Virus record (IMG/VR): IMGVR_UViG_3300047557_001498
Location: 1-64,000 of that record
Length of the DNA: 64,000 bases
Origin: a virus
Reading direction: 5' to 3' (one strand)
Of the stretch, positions 50,759 through 57,750 are shown piece after piece (position 1 is the stretch's first letter; each line of letters begins with the position of its first letter). The position numbers were made by a program, and so were the translations under genes. The notes beneath the pieces are model-generated. The model was not told the origin of the DNA. It was given only the letters and a program-made list of their open reading frames with translations, and did not search any database.

Positions 50759-52381
50759 TTATGGTTTATAGAATACAAATATCGGCTCGTGTTTGAACCA
50801 CTCACCATTGAATAAAACTTTATTTGCTAGTCTTTCTGGATCAGAATTACCAATCATCTTTGTCATCAACATACACATTTTTCCTTTATATTCCATTCCA
50901 AGTGATTTCAAAATTTTTATGGAATCTTCTTCAAGGTTTATTGTTTTAGTTGCTGAAACTTTTATGTTTGCAATATTCCAACAAAGGTATCTATCGTTCT
51001 TCAAATATCTAACAGCAGTTTCAAGTGTTGGGCGAAGAAAGTTATCTCTCCAATCTGCATATTCTCCGTGTGATTTGTATGATTGAGTTTCATCGTCAGA
51101 ATACATTTCACGATTGAAATATGGCGGTGATGTGAAAACAAAATCTAACTTACCTTCATACTTTTGGAATTTAGGATTGTGTTGAATCAATTCTGAACCA
51201 TCTTGAAAAACATCATACGTGTGATCCTCTTTTACATCGAAAAATCTTGATGAAAGTGAACTACCTTTTTCACCAATGGATTTCAAATAAAAATCAGCAA
51301 GATATTCATAACGAGTTATTCCCAATTCTGGAATAGAATTGTCTGTATTAGGATCAGTTCCAACATAATGTATTGGACGACTTACAGACATTGCACCGAG
51401 TATTCTACCACCCCACCCTGCACTTGGATCATATACCGTCACCATTTCACTTGCCGGAATATGTTTCGTAAAATGTTCATACAAAAACTTTGCAGTCATT
51501 GGCGGAAAATTTACAGCAGGTTGTGAGAATGAAATACGGAATATCTGAAATGCTTGTGGAAATAACTTTGCACTCTTTTCATATACTCTAACCAAGAAAA
51601 CGTTTACTCTTGGTTCTTCACCGTCTTTTTTTATCATAAAATTATCAGACAATTCATCTATATCACCCAAATAAAAAATCATACTTTCATCAAGTATTCC
51701 ATCCTTAACAAACTCACGAATTTGATCGGCTTTGATAGTTAAATACTTTGTATATTTTTTATTGTAAGTTTCAAGTGTACACGATATTTTTGAAATACGC
51801 AAACCTTGTCCATCAAATCTACCATCACCATTCTTAAATGCTAAGAAGAAATCTCGAAGTGTTTCTCCCTCACGGAAGTATGGGTTCTTGATTTGATTTG
51901 ATGAAATGGATTTACTATACAAATACATTGAATCGTTATACAGAGTTCTACGCATAACATGATGAAATGTCTCTTTCATTTCATCGGTGAAGAAATCGTA
52001 AATAGATCGTGAAGTTTCACCGTTTGTTCCACTGGCAATTTTTGTTTTCAACATTGTTGGGAAGAATTGATTAGCTGCAGAACCGTTTTTAGAAAAATTG
52101 GCAATGACGCCGATGATGTCAGCGTCATTACCTTTTTCTGGATTATGAAAAATCTTTGAAGAATTGAATTGACGGAGCTTTGAAAATGATTGTATGATTT
52201 CTTCTTCACTTCTGCCAACAAGTGGCGGTTTACCATTTTCATCCCAATCTTTCAAAAACCTCATTCGTAAATCTTCTACCCATTCGGAAAACTTTTTATC
52301 GTCATAAGTTACCAACTCACCATATGTTATATTACATGGCCAGGACAGAACATTACCTTTTTCATAAAAATATTTTTGCAT
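50759..52381 (-). CDS. DNA amino-methyltransferase (SPPY)
   Basis: NFPP..AK, DPSAGWGGRI, FTSPPYF. Confidence 0.85.
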   Translation of the reverse strand: MQKYFYEKGNVLSWPCNITYGELVTYDDKKFSEWVEDLRMRFLKDWDENGKPPLVGRSEEEIIQSFSKLRQFNSSKIFHNPEKGNDADIIGVIANFSKNGSAANQFFPTMLKTKIASGTNGETSRSIYDFFTDEMKETFHHVMRRTLYNDSMYLYSKSISSNQIKNPYFREGETLRDFFLAFKNGDGRFDGQGLRISKISCTLETYNKKYTKYLTIKADQIREFVKDGILDESMIFYLGDIDELSDNFMIKKDGEEPRVNVFLVRVYEKSAKLFPQAFQIFRISFSQPAVNFPPMTAKFLYEHFTKHIPASEMVTVYDPSAGWGGRILGAMSVSRPIHYVGTDPNTDNSIPELGITRYEYLADFYLKSIGEKGSSLSSRFFDVKEDHTYDVFQDGSELIQHNPKFQKYEGKLDFVFTSPPYFNREMYSDDETQSYKSHGEYADWRDNFLRPTLETAVRYLKNDRYLCWNIANIKVSATKTINLEEDSIKILKSLGMEYKGKMCMLMTKMIGNSDPERLANKVLFNGEWFKHEPIFVFYKP

Positions 52382-53100
52382 CAGTTGTTATCCAATTTTA
52401 CTAAATAATATTTGGCTTCAAAATCATCAATATCAAATTCAACTTTTGCCAAACCTTCGGAAGAAACTTTAAGAGTTCCACCATTAAGGTCTTTATTAGC
52501 AGCAAGAATACCGTTAAAGTATTTTGCAGAGAAACTAATCGGATCAATATCACCACTTGCATTACAATCAATATCAATAGAGATACGGTTTGAATTTGTA
52601 TTTGAATAACCAAGAACAATTTGATATTTGTTCAATTTATCATTCTTCAATACCGTGAACTTTTCAATATCAGATAGTGCAGATTTTGCCTTAATGAATT
52701 TGTCAATAAATTCTTTTGTAATCGTAATATCCAATTCAAAAGGTGGCAACTCTTTTAGGTCTGGTGCAGGTGGAATTACTGCAAGGTCAGCCAACATATA
52801 ATTTACCGTAGTTGATTTGTCATCAATAGTTAATGAGAACGCCTTATCACCTGCACCGTTTACTTGAAAGTTTACTGTATTACCAAGAACTCCCAATAAA
52901 CTCACAAGCAGGTCAGTATTGTAAACTCCAAATTTCCAAGAATCTCCTTGAAAACTTTTTAACTTAACTTCACCAACAACACACTTATCATCGGAAATAA
53001 AACGAGTAGATAAACCACCGTTCATATTCCAAGCAACCGATTGAATCAACTTACCCAAGTGATACTTGCTGATAAAGTTGAGCAACTTTGATTTTTCCAT
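52381..53100 (-). CDS. sliding clamp (gp45-like)
   Basis: 239 aa, beta-rich, C-terminal G.LKVSSEGL.KVEF..YYLV; between polymerase and clamp loader. Confidence 0.7.
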   Translation of the reverse strand: MEKSKLLNFISKYHLGKLIQSVAWNMNGGLSTRFISDDKCVVGEVKLKSFQGDSWKFGVYNTDLLVSLLGVLGNTVNFQVNGAGDKAFSLTIDDKSTTVNYMLADLAVIPPAPDLKELPPFELDITITKEFIDKFIKAKSALSDIEKFTVLKNDKLNKYQIVLGYSNTNSNRISIDIDCNASGDIDPISFSAKYFNGILAANKDLNGGTLKVSSEGLAKVEFDIDDFEAKYYLVKLDNN

Positions 53101-53133
53101 AACAAAAATCCTTAATGATTAGAAAATAATGTA

Positions 53134-53167
53134 TACAAATATACGAAAAAATTTTGAATTATCAAAA
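53134..53167 (-). promoter_or_regulatory. Bacteroidota-type promoter before the clamp gene
   Basis: Minus strand TTTG-N19-TATATTTGTA. Confidence 0.8.
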
Positions 53168-54076
53168 CGAAAAAAACTTTTGTGCAACTTTTTTGTTCTC
53201 CGTTGGGAAATCCCACTTCATTGCATCATAAAAGTTTCTTAACTTGCCATCCAATTCAGATACAAATAATTCGTTGGCATCAAAATGTTCTTTGATAAAC
53301 TCAATAATTTCATCTGGATCGGAATCTCCACGAAAAGCCAACTCCTCCAAACCATATTTGTTGGCTTTTAAATAAGCAATCTTAACCTTATCACCATTTT
53401 TGATTGGAGGAAACTTTGGAGGACAACCAAATACTTTTAATAACTTATTGTAATTTATAGCAGCTTTAATATGTGATGGTGTTCCTTTTCCGAATTTACC
53501 AAGAACATCATCCGTAACCATGCTTGCATATTTTTTAATGTCTTTAATAGAAGATGTCTTTGCAACCTCTGAATACAAAACTGTATTCAGATTTCTTTTG
53601 AAAGATAAAATATTTTCATCTATGTCCTTTTTATTTTTGTCTTTGAGAATATCAACTATAACATTTTTCATAAGTTTCTGAAACGATTTTGGGAATGATG
53701 AGCGCACAATATCCAATCCTTTAACTTCTAACTTATCAACCGATACTCCATTATCTGAAATAATCCATAGTGCATATCTCTTTTTCTTTTGCCAGAAACC
53801 CGTTCTACCAATCATTTCTTGTTTAATTTCTAAACGATGTTTGTCTGTATTGAATATCTTTTTAGCAAAAACATCATAGAATTGATTAACATAATTTTGA
53901 ACTTCAGTTGCAATTTCGTAAATTTTAGGTGTCATAGAATCAATATCATTGGTATCTATTTCAGGAAATCTATTCTTAACGAGAGGCAGACAAGAAACGA
54001 AAACAGAATCCGTGTCTACATATTGAACATGATCTATTTCAACATTTTCATTTTTTATTATTTTTTTTATTTTCAT
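53162..54076 (-). CDS. polB: family B DNA polymerase, C-terminal fragment (motif C, thumb)
   Basis: YVDTDSVF, KKRYA, VKGLDIVRSS, C-terminal clamp-binding-like QKFFSF. Confidence 0.92.
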   Translation of the reverse strand: MKIKKIIKNENVEIDHVQYVDTDSVFVSCLPLVKNRFPEIDTNDIDSMTPKIYEIATEVQNYVNQFYDVFAKKIFNTDKHRLEIKQEMIGRTGFWQKKKRYALWIISDNGVSVDKLEVKGLDIVRSSFPKSFQKLMKNVIVDILKDKNKKDIDENILSFKRNLNTVLYSEVAKTSSIKDIKKYASMVTDDVLGKFGKGTPSHIKAAINYNKLLKVFGCPPKFPPIKNGDKVKIAYLKANKYGLEELAFRGDSDPDEIIEFIKEHFDANELFVSELDGKLRNFYDAMKWDFPTENKKVAQKFFSF

Positions 54077-54092
54077 ATCGAATCAATATATT

Positions 54093-54740
54093 TTACAAAT
54101 TAAGAAAACTTTTATACGAACATGATATATTTGCATTGTCTAAATAGTGTTTAAATTCTACATCCGAATCTCTTTCTTCTGGTGTGAAATACCACGGTAT
54201 ATGTTTTGCCCTATAATCAACTAAACTAACACCACCGATGAATGCATCTTTTATATTGTAAACAGCAAATGTAGTATCTATCAATACATTTATCAAACAA
54301 CCTTCAAGTTCTGTTGATTGCGTTTGTCTAGATTTTTCATACGATTGTATGTGATCATAATACGGCGAATCAATCGGAACATCGTGAAAGTCTAATGTTA
54401 AACCAACCTTACCATAATCTGGAAATTTTTCAAGAATAGATATTGATTTTGTCAAACAATCTGTTGGTGTGATTGATAAATCTAAATCAGGATCTGTTAC
54501 AACATAGTAATCTGATTCTAATGAATTAACCAATCCCGAAATCCATGGTGCATGATGGCCTAAATTTTCAGTTCTAACAACTCTAATATCCGTTTCACTA
54601 TACCATTCCAAAAGAGGTTCATATGTACTATCATTATCTAAAATTATTATTTCACCGACCATATCAAACTTTGAAATGTATTCTATCATTTTTCTTGGCC
54701 ATGTCAATAAGTTTCTATTATTTATTATTACTGGAATCAT
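54093..54740 (-). CDS. glycosyltransferase family 2 lying between the polymerase halves
   Basis: IIILDNDSTYEPLL.WY, NLGH, YVVTDPDL, DTTFAVY, HIPWY. Confidence 0.8.
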   Translation of the reverse strand: MIPVIINNRNLLTWPRKMIEYISKFDMVGEIIILDNDSTYEPLLEWYSETDIRVVRTENLGHHAPWISGLVNSLESDYYVVTDPDLDLSITPTDCLTKSISILEKFPDYGKVGLTLDFHDVPIDSPYYDHIQSYEKSRQTQSTELEGCLINVLIDTTFAVYNIKDAFIGGVSLVDYRAKHIPWYFTPEERDSDVEFKHYLDNANISCSYKSFLNL

Positions 54741-54755
54741 TTTTTTTCCAAAAAA

Positions 54756-56522
54756 TTATACAATATCATCTGTTTCTAAAAGTTCAGACGCCTTAACTTT
54801 TGTCAATATACCATTTCTCATTATGGATATAAAATTATTTGAATAGTATGTTCGAGTTGAATTGTCTTCCATTTTAACAATTACCTCATATCCAAGCTCT
54901 TTATTGTATTTCATGTTTATAGCAGCTTCTGTTTTTTTGATAACGGTTTGACCGGATAGAGTAACCGCTTCAGCATTATCAATATCATAAAAACGAAATG
55001 CCGGTAAACCCAAAATACCATACATAGAATTAAGAAGAATTTTTTGAACAAGTTGTCTTTTCTTGTAAAACTCATACTTTTCTGTATCACCCGCATTACC
55101 CCACTTCTTCATTTCATTTTTATACTCAACCCTCTTATCAAACCAATCAGAAAGAATTGCTGGAATAAGTCCTGTTCTTTCTGAACTATACATTACCCCA
55201 TTTGATGCAACGGTGTATTTGTATTTATCCAAAAATGCCTTTAACTTTTCTTTCGATACCGTTTCACCACCAACAATATATGCATCTACATTACCACGAA
55301 GAAATTCTTCTGCATTCCAATTCTCAATCTTAGCAATTTTTGTTTCCGGTGAAATGTTTAGTGTCATAATGATTGACGGATAAAGTGATGTTAAGTCCAA
55401 GTCATACATCCACTCATATCTACCAGGAACGGGATCCTTAACAAATGCTCCAATAAATCCCTTCTCACCACTATCTTTCAATTCTTGCATTTTTTCTTGT
55501 CTATCTGCAGGTTTGTTCGGAGCAACAACACCACCAATATGCTTCAGATATGTCAGCATCGCACCTTCAAGATACTTTGATGAATAAACAAAATCTTCAT
55601 AAGGAACATGACCGACATGAGCAATACCTCTAACTAAATCGATATATTGTAATTTCTTATCCAAATCAATTACCAACTCAACGTCAGTAATGTTGTAATC
55701 AATAAATGTATCAATATCGTTTTCCATCAAATCATCAAGATTACCCTCATACTCAACCTTACCACGACCAAGTTCTGTTATTGAAACATAATCTAATGAA
55801 TAAGATGGTAGCTCCTTATATGAGAATTTTTTGTAAACAGTCATATAATCTAACACAGATGTCCCACCTATTGTATATCGGTTTCTATATGGAGAATAAA
55901 ACATTTCACCGATAACAGAAAGATTGTTTGCTTGTTTTTTACCGAGAACACGTTTGATGCGATTATACAAATATGGAATATCGAATGCATCACAATTCCA
56001 ACCCGTCATAACATGGGGTTGAATTTCTTGAATAGCATCTATAAATTTTAATAACAAAGTTTTTTCATCGTAACATGGAATTACTGTTTTGTTATGGGTA
56101 GTTTTTGAATCTAATTTTTTTTTCTTGTCCAATACAAGAATTGTGTAATGGTCTGATGCAGAATCATGGTAAGCGATAGATGTTACTTCATTGTTACCTT
56201 GTGTTGGATCTGGAACACCTGTAATCATTTCAACCTCAATATCAAATGTCATAGTAACTATTCCATTTGACGGCATATCTGAATCGCCGTACATATCAAC
56301 GAGAATACGAGTAGTCTCTGCAATATCAGATTCAAACAAGTCTGGATCATTCTTAACAAAGTTTGTAACCTTTGATAGTTTATCACCATATAGAGAAATA
56401 TATTTACCGTTAGGATCTTTTTTGTAAGCATACGGTTTATATTCAAAATGTAATAAACCTTTGGTATCATCCCAAACCCACGCTTCTCTTGTATTTGTTT
56501 TTACGAAAATGTTTTGATACAT
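54756..56522 (-). CDS. polB: family B DNA polymerase, N-terminal fragment (3'-5' exonuclease, motifs A and B)
   Basis: FDIEV, GWN..FD.PY, YN..DV, DLTSLYPS, K..LNS.YG; start re-called at MYQNIF. Confidence 0.92.
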   Translation of the reverse strand: MYQNIFVKTNTREAWVWDDTKGLLHFEYKPYAYKKDPNGKYISLYGDKLSKVTNFVKNDPDLFESDIAETTRILVDMYGDSDMPSNGIVTMTFDIEVEMITGVPDPTQGNNEVTSIAYHDSASDHYTILVLDKKKKLDSKTTHNKTVIPCYDEKTLLLKFIDAIQEIQPHVMTGWNCDAFDIPYLYNRIKRVLGKKQANNLSVIGEMFYSPYRNRYTIGGTSVLDYMTVYKKFSYKELPSYSLDYVSITELGRGKVEYEGNLDDLMENDIDTFIDYNITDVELVIDLDKKLQYIDLVRGIAHVGHVPYEDFVYSSKYLEGAMLTYLKHIGGVVAPNKPADRQEKMQELKDSGEKGFIGAFVKDPVPGRYEWMYDLDLTSLYPSIIMTLNISPETKIAKIENWNAEEFLRGNVDAYIVGGETVSKEKLKAFLDKYKYTVASNGVMYSSERTGLIPAILSDWFDKRVEYKNEMKKWGNAGDTEKYEFYKKRQLVQKILLNSMYGILGLPAFRFYDIDNAEAVTLSGQTVIKKTEAAINMKYNKELGYEVIVKMEDNSTRTYYSNNFISIMRNGILTKVKASELLETDDIV

Positions 56523-56523
56523 A

Positions 56524-57750
56524 TTAAACTCTCTTAAACATCCATATTGGTTCACAAAACTTTTTATCTCTATTCTTCTCGGCAAATTCTACACTATCAT
56601 CAAGGAAATGTCCGTCTCTTGTTGCAGTTCCTGCACCGGCAGAGTTTGGTCTTTTTGACATTTCCATTCCGATACAACCGATATATTCCATTCCATTCTC
56701 TACAAGGAAATCACTCATTGGGTTTGTTATCTCTAACCATTGACGACCGGTAGACCATGCAGAGTTTGTGTAAACATCTGCAATGTTTATTGCCATAATA
56801 CCACCAACTCTCAATGATGGGATGATATTACCCAATGTTTTATGTAGAAAGTTTTTATTCCATTCATCAATACCTTTATATCGAACCCAACTTTGTGTGT
56901 CTGATTGTGAATACTTCTCAACATTAAAATATGGTGGTGATGTAAACACCAAGTCAAAGTGTTCCGGATATTGTGTGAAATCGAAATCTTCTGCTGGTGA
57001 TGTATAAAAATTCGTTTTCTTTTTACTTTCAAAGAAACCTAAATTCTTTTCATAGAACTGTTTTTGTTCTTCATATATCGGATGATTTTCTACTCTTGGA
57101 TCCAAACCAACATAATGTTCGGTACAAGATGCTGCATAAAAACCAGCAAGTCTGTCACCCCATCCCATAGAGAAATCCAATACATTCTTTACACCCAACA
57201 TTTCATATAGAACTTTAGCAACATTTGGTTTAAACTGTGAACAAATGTATTTACGAAGACCTAACATGGTTCTTAATTCCGATTTACCAAGTGTTTCCAT
57301 TTTGAGTGAATACATGGAACCCATTAGTGATTTCATAAACTTATGGTTAGACCATGTTCTGGCAGGACCTGGTGAAACTGATGCATCAACTTCCCAACGA
57401 TTCTTTTGTTGAAAATAATTTGATGCATCGTTACCAGTATTCAAACGACTGAAATATAATTGTTTTCCCTCATATGTCAAAGCATATTTTGGTTCAGACG
57501 CCTTTCTTGGAAACCACTCACCTTCGGTTAGCAATTCATTCCAACGAATACCTTTGAGTTTTAGAAACTCTCGTTGTGCATCTTCAATAGTAATTTCAGC
57601 GTAAGGTAAAGGGTATGTCATTGCTATTTCAGCAAGACGATCCTTTACATATTCTTTATCGAAGTTTTCTTTTATGTATGTTATTTGTTCGGCAGTTATT
57701 GTTAGATACGGTTCCATACCGTAAAATTGTTGGAAGTAATCTTGTTGCAC
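56524..57750 (-). CDS. DNA amino-methyltransferase (SPPY)
   Basis: QFKPNVAK, DFSMGWGDRL, FTSPPYF. Confidence 0.85.
   Translation of the reverse strand: MQQDYFQQFYGMEPYLTITAEQITYIKENFDKEYVKDRLAEIAMTYPLPYAEITIEDAQREFLKLKGIRWNELLTEGEWFPRKASEPKYALTYEGKQLYFSRLNTGNDASNYFQQKNRWEVDASVSPGPARTWSNHKFMKSLMGSMYSLKMETLGKSELRTMLGLRKYICSQFKPNVAKVLYEMLGVKNVLDFSMGWGDRLAGFYAASCTEHYVGLDPRVENHPIYEEQKQFYEKNLGFFESKKKTNFYTSPAEDFDFTQYPEHFDLVFTSPPYFNVEKYSQSDTQSWVRYKGIDEWNKNFLHKTLGNIIPSLRVGGIMAINIADVYTNSAWSTGRQWLEITNPMSDFLVENGMEYIGCIGMEMSKRPNSAGAGTATRDGHFLDDSVEFAEKNRDKKFCEPIWMFKRV

Follow-up and report, generated by a model that had tools for sequence, protein, structure and literature searches.

The locus described here raises the question of how a phage fares when its only DNA polymerase gene has been broken in two, and of where the extra residues at the two new protein ends come from. 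It occupies positions 53162–56522, on the minus strand, of a 64,000-nucleotide stretch of viral DNA (positions 1 to 64,000 of the IMG/VR record IMGVR_UViG_3300047557_001498; hereafter, the window). An earlier note, made from the sequence alone, had seen in it a split gene for a B-family DNA polymerase (PolB), with a tail on the N-terminal half and a leader on the C-terminal half that looked like remnants of a split intein. We conclude that the tail is about half of an intein N-fragment and is homologous to the ends of the split-intein N-fragments found in ribonucleotide reductase (NrdA). We also regard it as rather probable that this is a fractured PolB with dead half-intein ends, in which tail and leader re-form the split-intein sheet and so hold or orient the two chains non-covalently.

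Three tightly packed open reading frames (ORFs) fill the locus. The N-half ORF (54756–56522, minus strand) starts with the ATG at 56522, as in every homologue, although a mechanical ORF call reaches a TTG at 56585. Its polymerase body (54891–56522) comprises the exonuclease domain and motifs A and B (Pfam DNA_pol_B_exo1, E-value 7e-24; DNA_pol_B, 4.8e-31) and ends in KYNKELG. The 304-aa C-half ORF (53162–54076, minus strand) has a body (53162–54040) with motif C (DTDS), the remaining palm, the thumb and a C-terminal FF clamp-type end, matched by Pfam DNA_pol_B over positions 224–356. According to Pfam and PHROG, the two halves share out the features of a T4 gp43-type B-family polymerase, with the exonuclease domain and motifs A and B in the former and DTDS in the latter. 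The PHROG profile phrog_262 is covered from position 8 to 569 by the N-half and from 570 to 846 by the C-half, and Pfam DNA_pol_B from 27 to 217 and from about 218 to 355, respectively. This exact hand-over indicates that the gene was cut at a single point with nothing lost, and it bears out the description of polB in the earlier note as split between motifs B and C into two same-strand genes. Like the genes termed fractured by Dassa et al. (2009), the host gene thus consists of two adjacent same-strand ORFs with one break point. No further PolB matches were found in the 115-kb virus record. The 21 additional upstream codons of the TTG-extended call (56523–56585) overlap the preceding gene.

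The break falls in a short variable loop about 10 residues upstream of motif C. Unsplit relatives, which the earlier note had proposed to look for, do exist: the PolB proteins of Microcystis phage Mel-JY01 (848 aa) and of the metagenomic sequences P0075 and P0038 (838 aa) read straight across this loop, in agreement with the assignment of the site to a loop rather than to a usual intein position. Aligned with these proteins, the 44 residues that end the N-half (54759–54890) and the approximately 12 residues that open the C-half (54041–54076, MKIKKI plus a linker) have no counterpart, so that both extensions are indeed extras. The N-half body is 96% identical to that of unsplit P0075. It might be supposed that the split is an assembly artefact or that the gene is a decaying pseudogene in a defective phage, the record being a metagenomic virus contig with an estimated completeness of 65%. 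We consider this hardly credible: the same architecture occurs in independent contigs from many samples, both halves are intact, retain all motifs and are 93–96% identical to unsplit relatives, and they represent the only PolB in the record.

If the tail were mere read-through past the end of the polymerase sequence, it would not be conserved, and conservation was what we found. The last 90 residues of the N-half were searched against 5.8 billion proteins, and the best 120 of the 1,350 hits were examined. At least 36 N-half clusters (500–598 aa, with two of 947 and 953 aa) cover the entire tail, in N-halves that are 53–78% identical overall to that of the window, and all tail-bearing N-halves carry the motif E-L-x-E-T-D-[DE]-I shortly before their end; two of the 36 clusters have an intein in addition. 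In codon comparisons of metagenome loci, the ratio of non-synonymous to synonymous substitution rates (dN/dS) of the tail was 0.09 for the closest pair and 0.10–0.12 for more distant pairs, whose synonymous sites are near saturation; the tail is under purifying selection. The tail is present throughout a clade of 23 members that are all split, and also in the 484-kb uncultured jumbo phage LR756508.1. A DNA pattern scan for KYNKE...ETD[DE] recovered real loci in 1 of 12 viral and 5 of 44 metagenome cases, the rest being mostly chance matches.

The leader behaves in the same way. MKIK[KQSR]I opens eight of eight C-halves (that of the window, three from the metagenome loci and four from the protein search), which extend down to 44% identity with the window's C-half and differ in AAA/AAG and ATA/ATT codons within the leader; with the MKTKKI of the jumbo phage, a leader is found in all nine readable C-halves. 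Between it and the point where the polymerase sequence resumes lies a variable linker. Both new ends therefore carry extensions that lack counterparts in unsplit homologues and are conserved among the split ones, as do the tails borne by endonuclease insertions in other phage genes. Read-through thus fails as an explanation.

The evidence for an intein origin of the tail comes from transitive sequence links, profile-profile alignment and structure comparison, and the three are in agreement. A tail-only profile was searched against 1.84 billion representative proteins and gave 14 hits at E-values of 1e-3 or below. Besides PolB tails and some repeat proteins, these included P0144 (9e-5) and P0145 (7.9e-4), in both of which the block-B motif is still present, as TPDH and TPNH, respectively. 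P0144 bears the JGI name intein/homing endonuclease, and P0145 matches Pfam Intein_splicing (3.8e-8) and the TvoVMA intein (2.2e-5); longer relatives of P0145 are N-halves of NrdA that end in a complete, Cys-starting N-intein. Aligned by hhalign with these NrdA N-inteins, the tails matched their very C-terminus over 43 columns (probability 94.9, E-value 4.7e-8), which confirms the resemblance to the end of a split-intein N-fragment that the earlier note had pointed out. One dead tail, P0137, gave by itself a weak match to Intein_splicing (0.024). Among viral contigs searched with the NrdA N-intein alignment, no relative was found.

AlphaFold2 predicted four strands for the tail alone, using a six-sequence alignment and no templates (mean predicted local distance difference test score, pLDDT, 84.7). 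The ten best Foldseek matches to this model among 350,542 chains were all inteins, though with E-values of 0.9 or more, weak values of the order to be expected for 51 residues; the best of them, PabCDC21-1 (6rpp), gave a TMq of 0.73 and a root-mean-square deviation of 1.2 Å over 42 columns. With VIA-align against 48,161 representative chains, ranks 1–21 were all inteins or Hedgehog (HINT) domains, and the HINT superfamily accounted for 27 of the 36 chains with Z-scores of at least 2. In every case the aligned stretch was the latter half of the N-fragment, ending at the natural split point (residues 49–95 of Npu DnaE, 41–85 of gp41-1 and 56–105 of NrdJ-1). The HINT homology that a functional split intein would have throughout was therefore found for part of the fold only. 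ESM Atlas neighbours of the tail include HINT-bearing clusters, with scores of just 0.76–0.84, which we treat as a lead only.

The leader is best understood from contiguous NrdA mini-inteins, which a tblastn search with P0145 revealed in the Campylobacter phages CPt10 (L058:3456-3893) and PC14 (L059:3444-3902). In both, a tail-like block is followed by a linker of 5–6 residues and then by a Lys/Ile-rich segment (KIVKNIKI, IKIKSI) that closely resembles the leader; it is followed by blocks F and G and by a terminal HN with Ser or Thr. This order implies that tail and leader make up one continuous central stretch of an intein, interrupted exactly at the break of split inteins, which is also the point of endonuclease-domain insertion. 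To judge from sequence position and pattern, the counterpart of the leader in an intein is probably the first strand of the C-fragment, and the fit of the leader to the start of C-fragments, claimed in the earlier note, is matched by similar segments in the proper place in these mini-inteins.

Several results weigh against a HINT origin. The tail of the window alone had no Pfam match at E-values up to 10, and an HMMER profile of six tails gave only chance hits to PDB sequences (methionine aminopeptidase, 0.8). The Foldseek E-values cited above and the maximal Z-score of 6.2 are middling for a 51-residue model from six sequences, and AlphaFold may have brought its learned knowledge of inteins into the model. 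At its length, the leader allows no statistical test, its link to the C-fragment rests on position and pattern, and phmmer found nothing for it in the PDB. Given these weak direct searches and absolute scores, the HINT assignment rests on enrichment, profile-profile alignment and transitive links, and the weight is placed on the enrichment and its agreement with hhalign, not on the structural scores.

Could the two halves be spliced together? The tail follows KELG immediately and sets in where an N-intein would have reached about residue 50–65, so that the block-A half with its position-1 nucleophile, which a split intein would require, is entirely absent. In 34 aligned tails, the column of the block-B Thr holds Tyr in 24, Trp in 7 and Phe, His and Asn in one each, with no Thr; the column of the block-B His holds Ser in 11, Thr in 10, Asn in 8, Gln and Glu in two each and Lys in one, with no His. 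Blocks F and G, the terminal (His-)Asn and the +1 Cys/Ser/Thr are missing as well: a leader of 7–12 residues and a linker are followed at once by polymerase sequence. Instead of the complete split-intein halves of the fractured genes of Dassa et al. (2009), only truncated remnants are present. The loss of blocks A, F and G and the replacement of the block-B Thr and His exclude canonical splicing, and the absence of splicing residues stated in the earlier note extends from the window to all 34 aligned tails.

Joining by a non-canonical protein trans-splicing reaction, or at the RNA level by an intron or a translational bypass, would be compatible with the HINT origin of the module, with the real inteins found elsewhere in related PolB genes and with a 5-nt coding gap in one relative. 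Such joining nevertheless appears very remote. Besides the lack of the residues just listed, the halves are separated by an entire 648-nt gene that has a start and a stop of its own, and no Rfam family, introns included, was found at E-values up to 1 over positions 52800–56800. Contiguous tail-plus-leader inserts in unsplit PolB genes or complete inteins at this site, which the earlier note had thought worth seeking, were not seen among the best 120 of the 1,350 hits, itself a weak piece of evidence.

The inteins and the coding gap in these relatives deserve a description of their own. The tail-bearing N-halves P0001 and P0006 each contain a complete intein of about 355 aa in the exonuclease domain (alignment columns ~197–555), which follows TGWN, starts with Cys, ends in VHN followed by Cys and carries LAGLIDADG-like motifs; a real intein and a dead tail thus coexist in one protein. 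In LR756508.1 (L060:103-6085 and L061:490-2355), the N-half likewise has a real intein in motif B in addition to the dead tail, and the downstream C-half has one inside motif C, which begins with Ser and ends in HN followed by Thr. The coding gap is found in locus L049 (metagenome contig Ga0209136_1013689, minus strand; L049:585-640), where 5 nt interrupt the motif-C codons of the C-half, GAT ACG [TGACG] GAC TCC, with an in-frame TGA right after the ACG codon and a second ACG 5 nt downstream. Such a matched pair of codons could serve for take-off and landing in a short translational hop, or the gap could stem from a sequencing error.

How did these ends enter the polymerase gene? The relatives and a tree of N-halves, on which the split state is patchily distributed, point to a 'fractured gene' cassette that is mobile and widespread and that brings homing endonucleases with it in other loci; this goes beyond the account given in the earlier note. 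In a tree of 94 N-half bodies, truncated at KYN.E so that tail columns were excluded, the split state underwent at least 7 changes, 4 of them forced by well-supported branches; the sampling was biased towards relatives of the window, and these counts are illustrative. The window is nested within a clade of 26 unsplit sequences (SH-aLRT 96–98), which, together with the 96% identity of its body, indicates that the cassette arrived recently. Next to the junction, the C-half of the window reads D-H-V like other split alleles, where its unsplit sisters have D-Y-V, and this is consistent with co-conversion on entry of the cassette. From these comparisons, the cassette appears to be mobile. The junction of the unsplit Mel-JY01 PolB (L001:3938-6484) reads E-L-G like the split alleles, whereas the closest unsplit relatives of the window have E-L-K; E-L-G may be a mark left by a lost cassette, or a coincidence.

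In two related loci, L033 and L041, the gap between the halves is occupied by a free-standing endonuclease of the kind found in the fractured genes of Dassa et al. (2009): the gap ORFs carry three NUMOD3 motifs (7.6e-15 and 2.7e-18) and match PHROG 'homing endonuclease' families (2.9e-11). Loci L038 and L049 have a 285-aa gap ORF that has in common with L033 a C-terminal domain of about 70 residues with the motif E-x-D-E-x-H-H (7e-11). Homing endonucleases of the EDxHD (Vsr-like) class join an N-terminal NUMOD region to a C-terminal nuclease domain of Vsr type. NUMOD3 is present in L033 and L041, whereas the C-terminal domain of the L033-type ORF had no profile match to solved Vsr or I-Bth0305I chains, and the AlphaFold2 model of the L033 endonuclease (pLDDT 42) was too poor for a structure search.

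The gap of the window contains no free-standing endonuclease. Its place is taken by a gene of 215 aa (54093–54740, minus strand), which the earlier note had described as a complete GT2 gene. The 648-nt ORF is complete and its structural likeness to GT2 proteins (GT-A fold) holds, but the Pfam score (PF00535, E-value 0.022, 15.1 bits) is below the cut-off of 23.3. NCBIfam TIGR04440 gave an E-value of 0.0023, and the ESM Atlas returned a feature score of 0.99, with template modelling (TM) scores of 0.96 to viral clusters of 218 aa and 0.88 to bacterial GT2 proteins; a GT2 set is common to 27 of its 30 nearest feature neighbours. This supports a predicted GT2-like fold for the middle ORF. It had no match in PHROG and none by tblastn in 50,697 phage records.

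In the jumbo phage LR756508.1, whose polymerase body is 46% identical, the halves are about 3 kb apart, and the gap contains four non-endonuclease ORFs, one of them resembling deoxycytidine monophosphate (dCMP) deaminase. Tail and leader are therefore kept whatever fills the gap, which argues that they serve the polymerase rather than the endonuclease. Two of the four gap ORFs are paralogues that start with MKLKKV and MKLKNL.

These observations bear on the view that the endonuclease cassette merely drags tail and leader along as neutral baggage, conserved by the youth of the cassette or by cassette signals in the DNA. The cassette is mobile and was recently acquired in the window, and the inserted gene comes immediately downstream of the tail DNA, as this view would have it. 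It is quite improbable, however, with a dN/dS of about 0.1 between clades whose synonymous sites are saturated, and with a tail that persists in the 23-member all-split clade and in the distant jumbo phage, also without an endonuclease.

We envisage the following course of events. A mobile cassette would have fractured the only B-family polymerase gene of the phage in the loop upstream of motif C. In relatives, this cassette would be a free-standing homing endonuclease gene between two short coding ends, of which the upstream one adds the 44-aa tail to the N-half and the downstream one adds the MKIKKI leader to the C-half. Both ends would go back to the central part of an intein, mini or split, of the phage NrdA type; the tail would be the N-fragment's second half, which spans the block-B region up to the canonical point of splitting or endonuclease insertion, and the leader probably the first strand of the C-fragment. 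The four strands of the acidic tail and the strand of the basic leader would then rebuild the intermolecular sheet by which split-intein halves 'capture' each other, and the rebuilt sheet would hold or orient the two polymerase chains with no covalent join. In this phage, the GT2-like gene would have replaced the endonuclease gene and is probably co-transcribed with the halves; no terminator-like site was found on the coding strand between them.

The suggestion of the earlier note that about half of a HINT fold has been kept without splicing is supported by hhalign, by structure and by the loss of the catalytic residues. Its notion of a domesticated intein fragment leaves two possible origins, in-place decay of a full intein or import of a half-intein that was already truncated within the endonuclease cassette. 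In the latter case, an endonuclease cassette excised from an intein, for example in nrdA, may have carried only the adjacent intein flanks into polB.

In this scheme, the tail would bind the leader, and this binding may be needed for activity. In complex predictions of the tail (N-half residues 541–588) with the whole C-half, the interface score ipSAE was 0.01 in two runs without controls, which speaks neither for nor against binding. Other points tell against the mechanism outlined above. The native interface between the PolB halves is probably large, and the halves may do without a clasp; in the split NrdA of phage Aeh1, the tails are needless for half-half binding and are needed for higher-order assembly and activity (PMC3045599). 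Also, the window has no endonuclease, and the mobility of its cassette is drawn from relatives and the tree.

The main rival is accordingly a function of the tails other than a heterodimerisation clasp: the halves would bind by their native interface, and the tails would help to shape the active site, to build higher-order assemblies or to reach another protein of the replisome (the clamp, helicase or primase, for example). Both the purifying selection and the persistence of the tail once the endonuclease is gone suit any function at the protein level, and tail deletion in Aeh1 NrdA abolished activity but not a/b binding (PMC3045599; restated in bioRxiv 10.1101/2022.08.31.505936). On the other hand, the part of an intein to which the tail is homologous is precisely the one that pairs with the C-fragment in split inteins, and the acidic end of the tail and the basic leader reproduce the charge pattern of the split-intein interface described in PMC2677866. 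We consider this rival unlikely, if deserving of attention, and prefer the non-covalent clasp. In more general terms, there is perhaps an even chance that these proteins define a family of truncated, catalytically dead half-inteins (~44 + 8 residues) that are kept by selection as a minimal docking pair, travel with homing-endonuclease cassettes, persist after endonuclease loss and make a slot for cargo.

Some details of the locus and its surroundings may be added. The stop codon of the N-half, TAA at 54756–54758 as read from the sequence, is followed by a 15-nt spacer, T6 GG A7 (54741–54755), in the frame common to the N-half and the GT2-like ORF, and a 16-nt spacer (54077–54092) precedes the C-half. 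The TAA and the ATG of the GT2-like gene (54741–54758) are thus in frame, five codons apart within the T6-GG-A7 run. Read-through of the stop would join the tail to the glycosyltransferase; with a one-in-three chance, the frame match is probably a coincidence. Further out, the ORF at 52381–53100 has a sliding-clamp PHROG match (phrog_223, 1.4e-8). Two large minus-strand ORFs, at 50759–52381 and 56524–57750, show weak matches to N6_N4_Mtase and to PHROG DNA methyltransferases, both match phrog_12517 as well, and they flank the polymerase and clamp genes.

If correct, the proposed mechanism connects two known answers of phages to endonucleases that invade essential genes, namely splicing of the protein and non-covalent tails: either one derives from the other, or the cassette carries just the docking half of an intein. 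It would also provide a natural, very small and orthogonal tag for heterodimerisation, selected in vivo on a large enzyme, and a family defined by sequence (at least 36 clusters, with active NrdA relatives besides) that allows the minimal unit of HINT association to be tested. The fractured essential gene would offer unrelated cargo genes a protected place with co-expression, taken here by a glycosyltransferase and in the jumbo phage by a dCMP deaminase and others.

Functionally similar tails have been published before (Dassa et al., 2009; Crona et al., 2011; Manning and Atkins, 2022). In the fractured genes of Dassa et al. (2009; PMC2677866), a free-standing homing endonuclease lies between the halves of a split intein, and the same paper reports one SbcD-like gene without an intein, whose tail and leader measure 25 and 9 aa, respectively. 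As there, an essential replication gene forms two adjacent same-strand ORFs with intein-derived new ends, phage-borne and mobile, with an endonuclease of NUMOD type between the halves, here in relatives. Unlike those genes, the present one retains just ~44 + 7–12 of the ~125–150 intein residues, with every splicing residue gone; PolB and the present site are absent from the hosts listed in that paper, and the endonuclease has given way to a GT2-like gene.

In nrdA-a/mobE/nrdA-b of Aeh1, insertion of an endonuclease gene created tails that are essential for the activity of the two-chain enzyme (Crona et al., 2011; PMC3045599). These C- and N-terminal tails, too, are missing from unsplit homologues, and the enzyme is non-covalent, without splicing; they differ from the present ones in having no reported intein ancestry and in being needless for a/b binding, as well as in host gene and endonuclease family. 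The T4 genes 39/mobA/60 have a C-terminal extension of ~44 aa and an N-terminal one that are always kept despite loss or replacement of the endonuclease (Manning and Atkins, bioRxiv 10.1101/2022.08.31.505936). There, as here, insertions were repeated and independent, whereas the extensions lack HINT homology, a 50-nt translational bypass is involved and the host is a topoisomerase.

The phage NrdA mini- and split inteins (CPt10, PC14 and metagenomic P0150-P0153) share sequence homology over the whole tail, with a leader-like segment next to it, and differ in being complete, with Cys1, TPNH or TxNH, blocks F/G and a terminal HN followed by Ser or Thr. T4-type gp43 encoded by two genes is also known from Aeromonas phages, including 43A/43B of Petrov and Karam and the Aes123 PolB1 with its split intein (PDB 9hth; PMC11923092), which is complete and splices. 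In contrast to our case, the break in Aeromonas split PolB (PHROG 2062 and 1918) is near residue 495–500 of the 609-aa ORF in the window's ORF list, before motif B. Our literature searches found no paper that describes such tails themselves as a truncated, splicing-dead half-intein. Fractured genes and endonuclease-borne tails were thus already known; to judge from these searches, the new part would be the dead half-intein ancestry of the tails.

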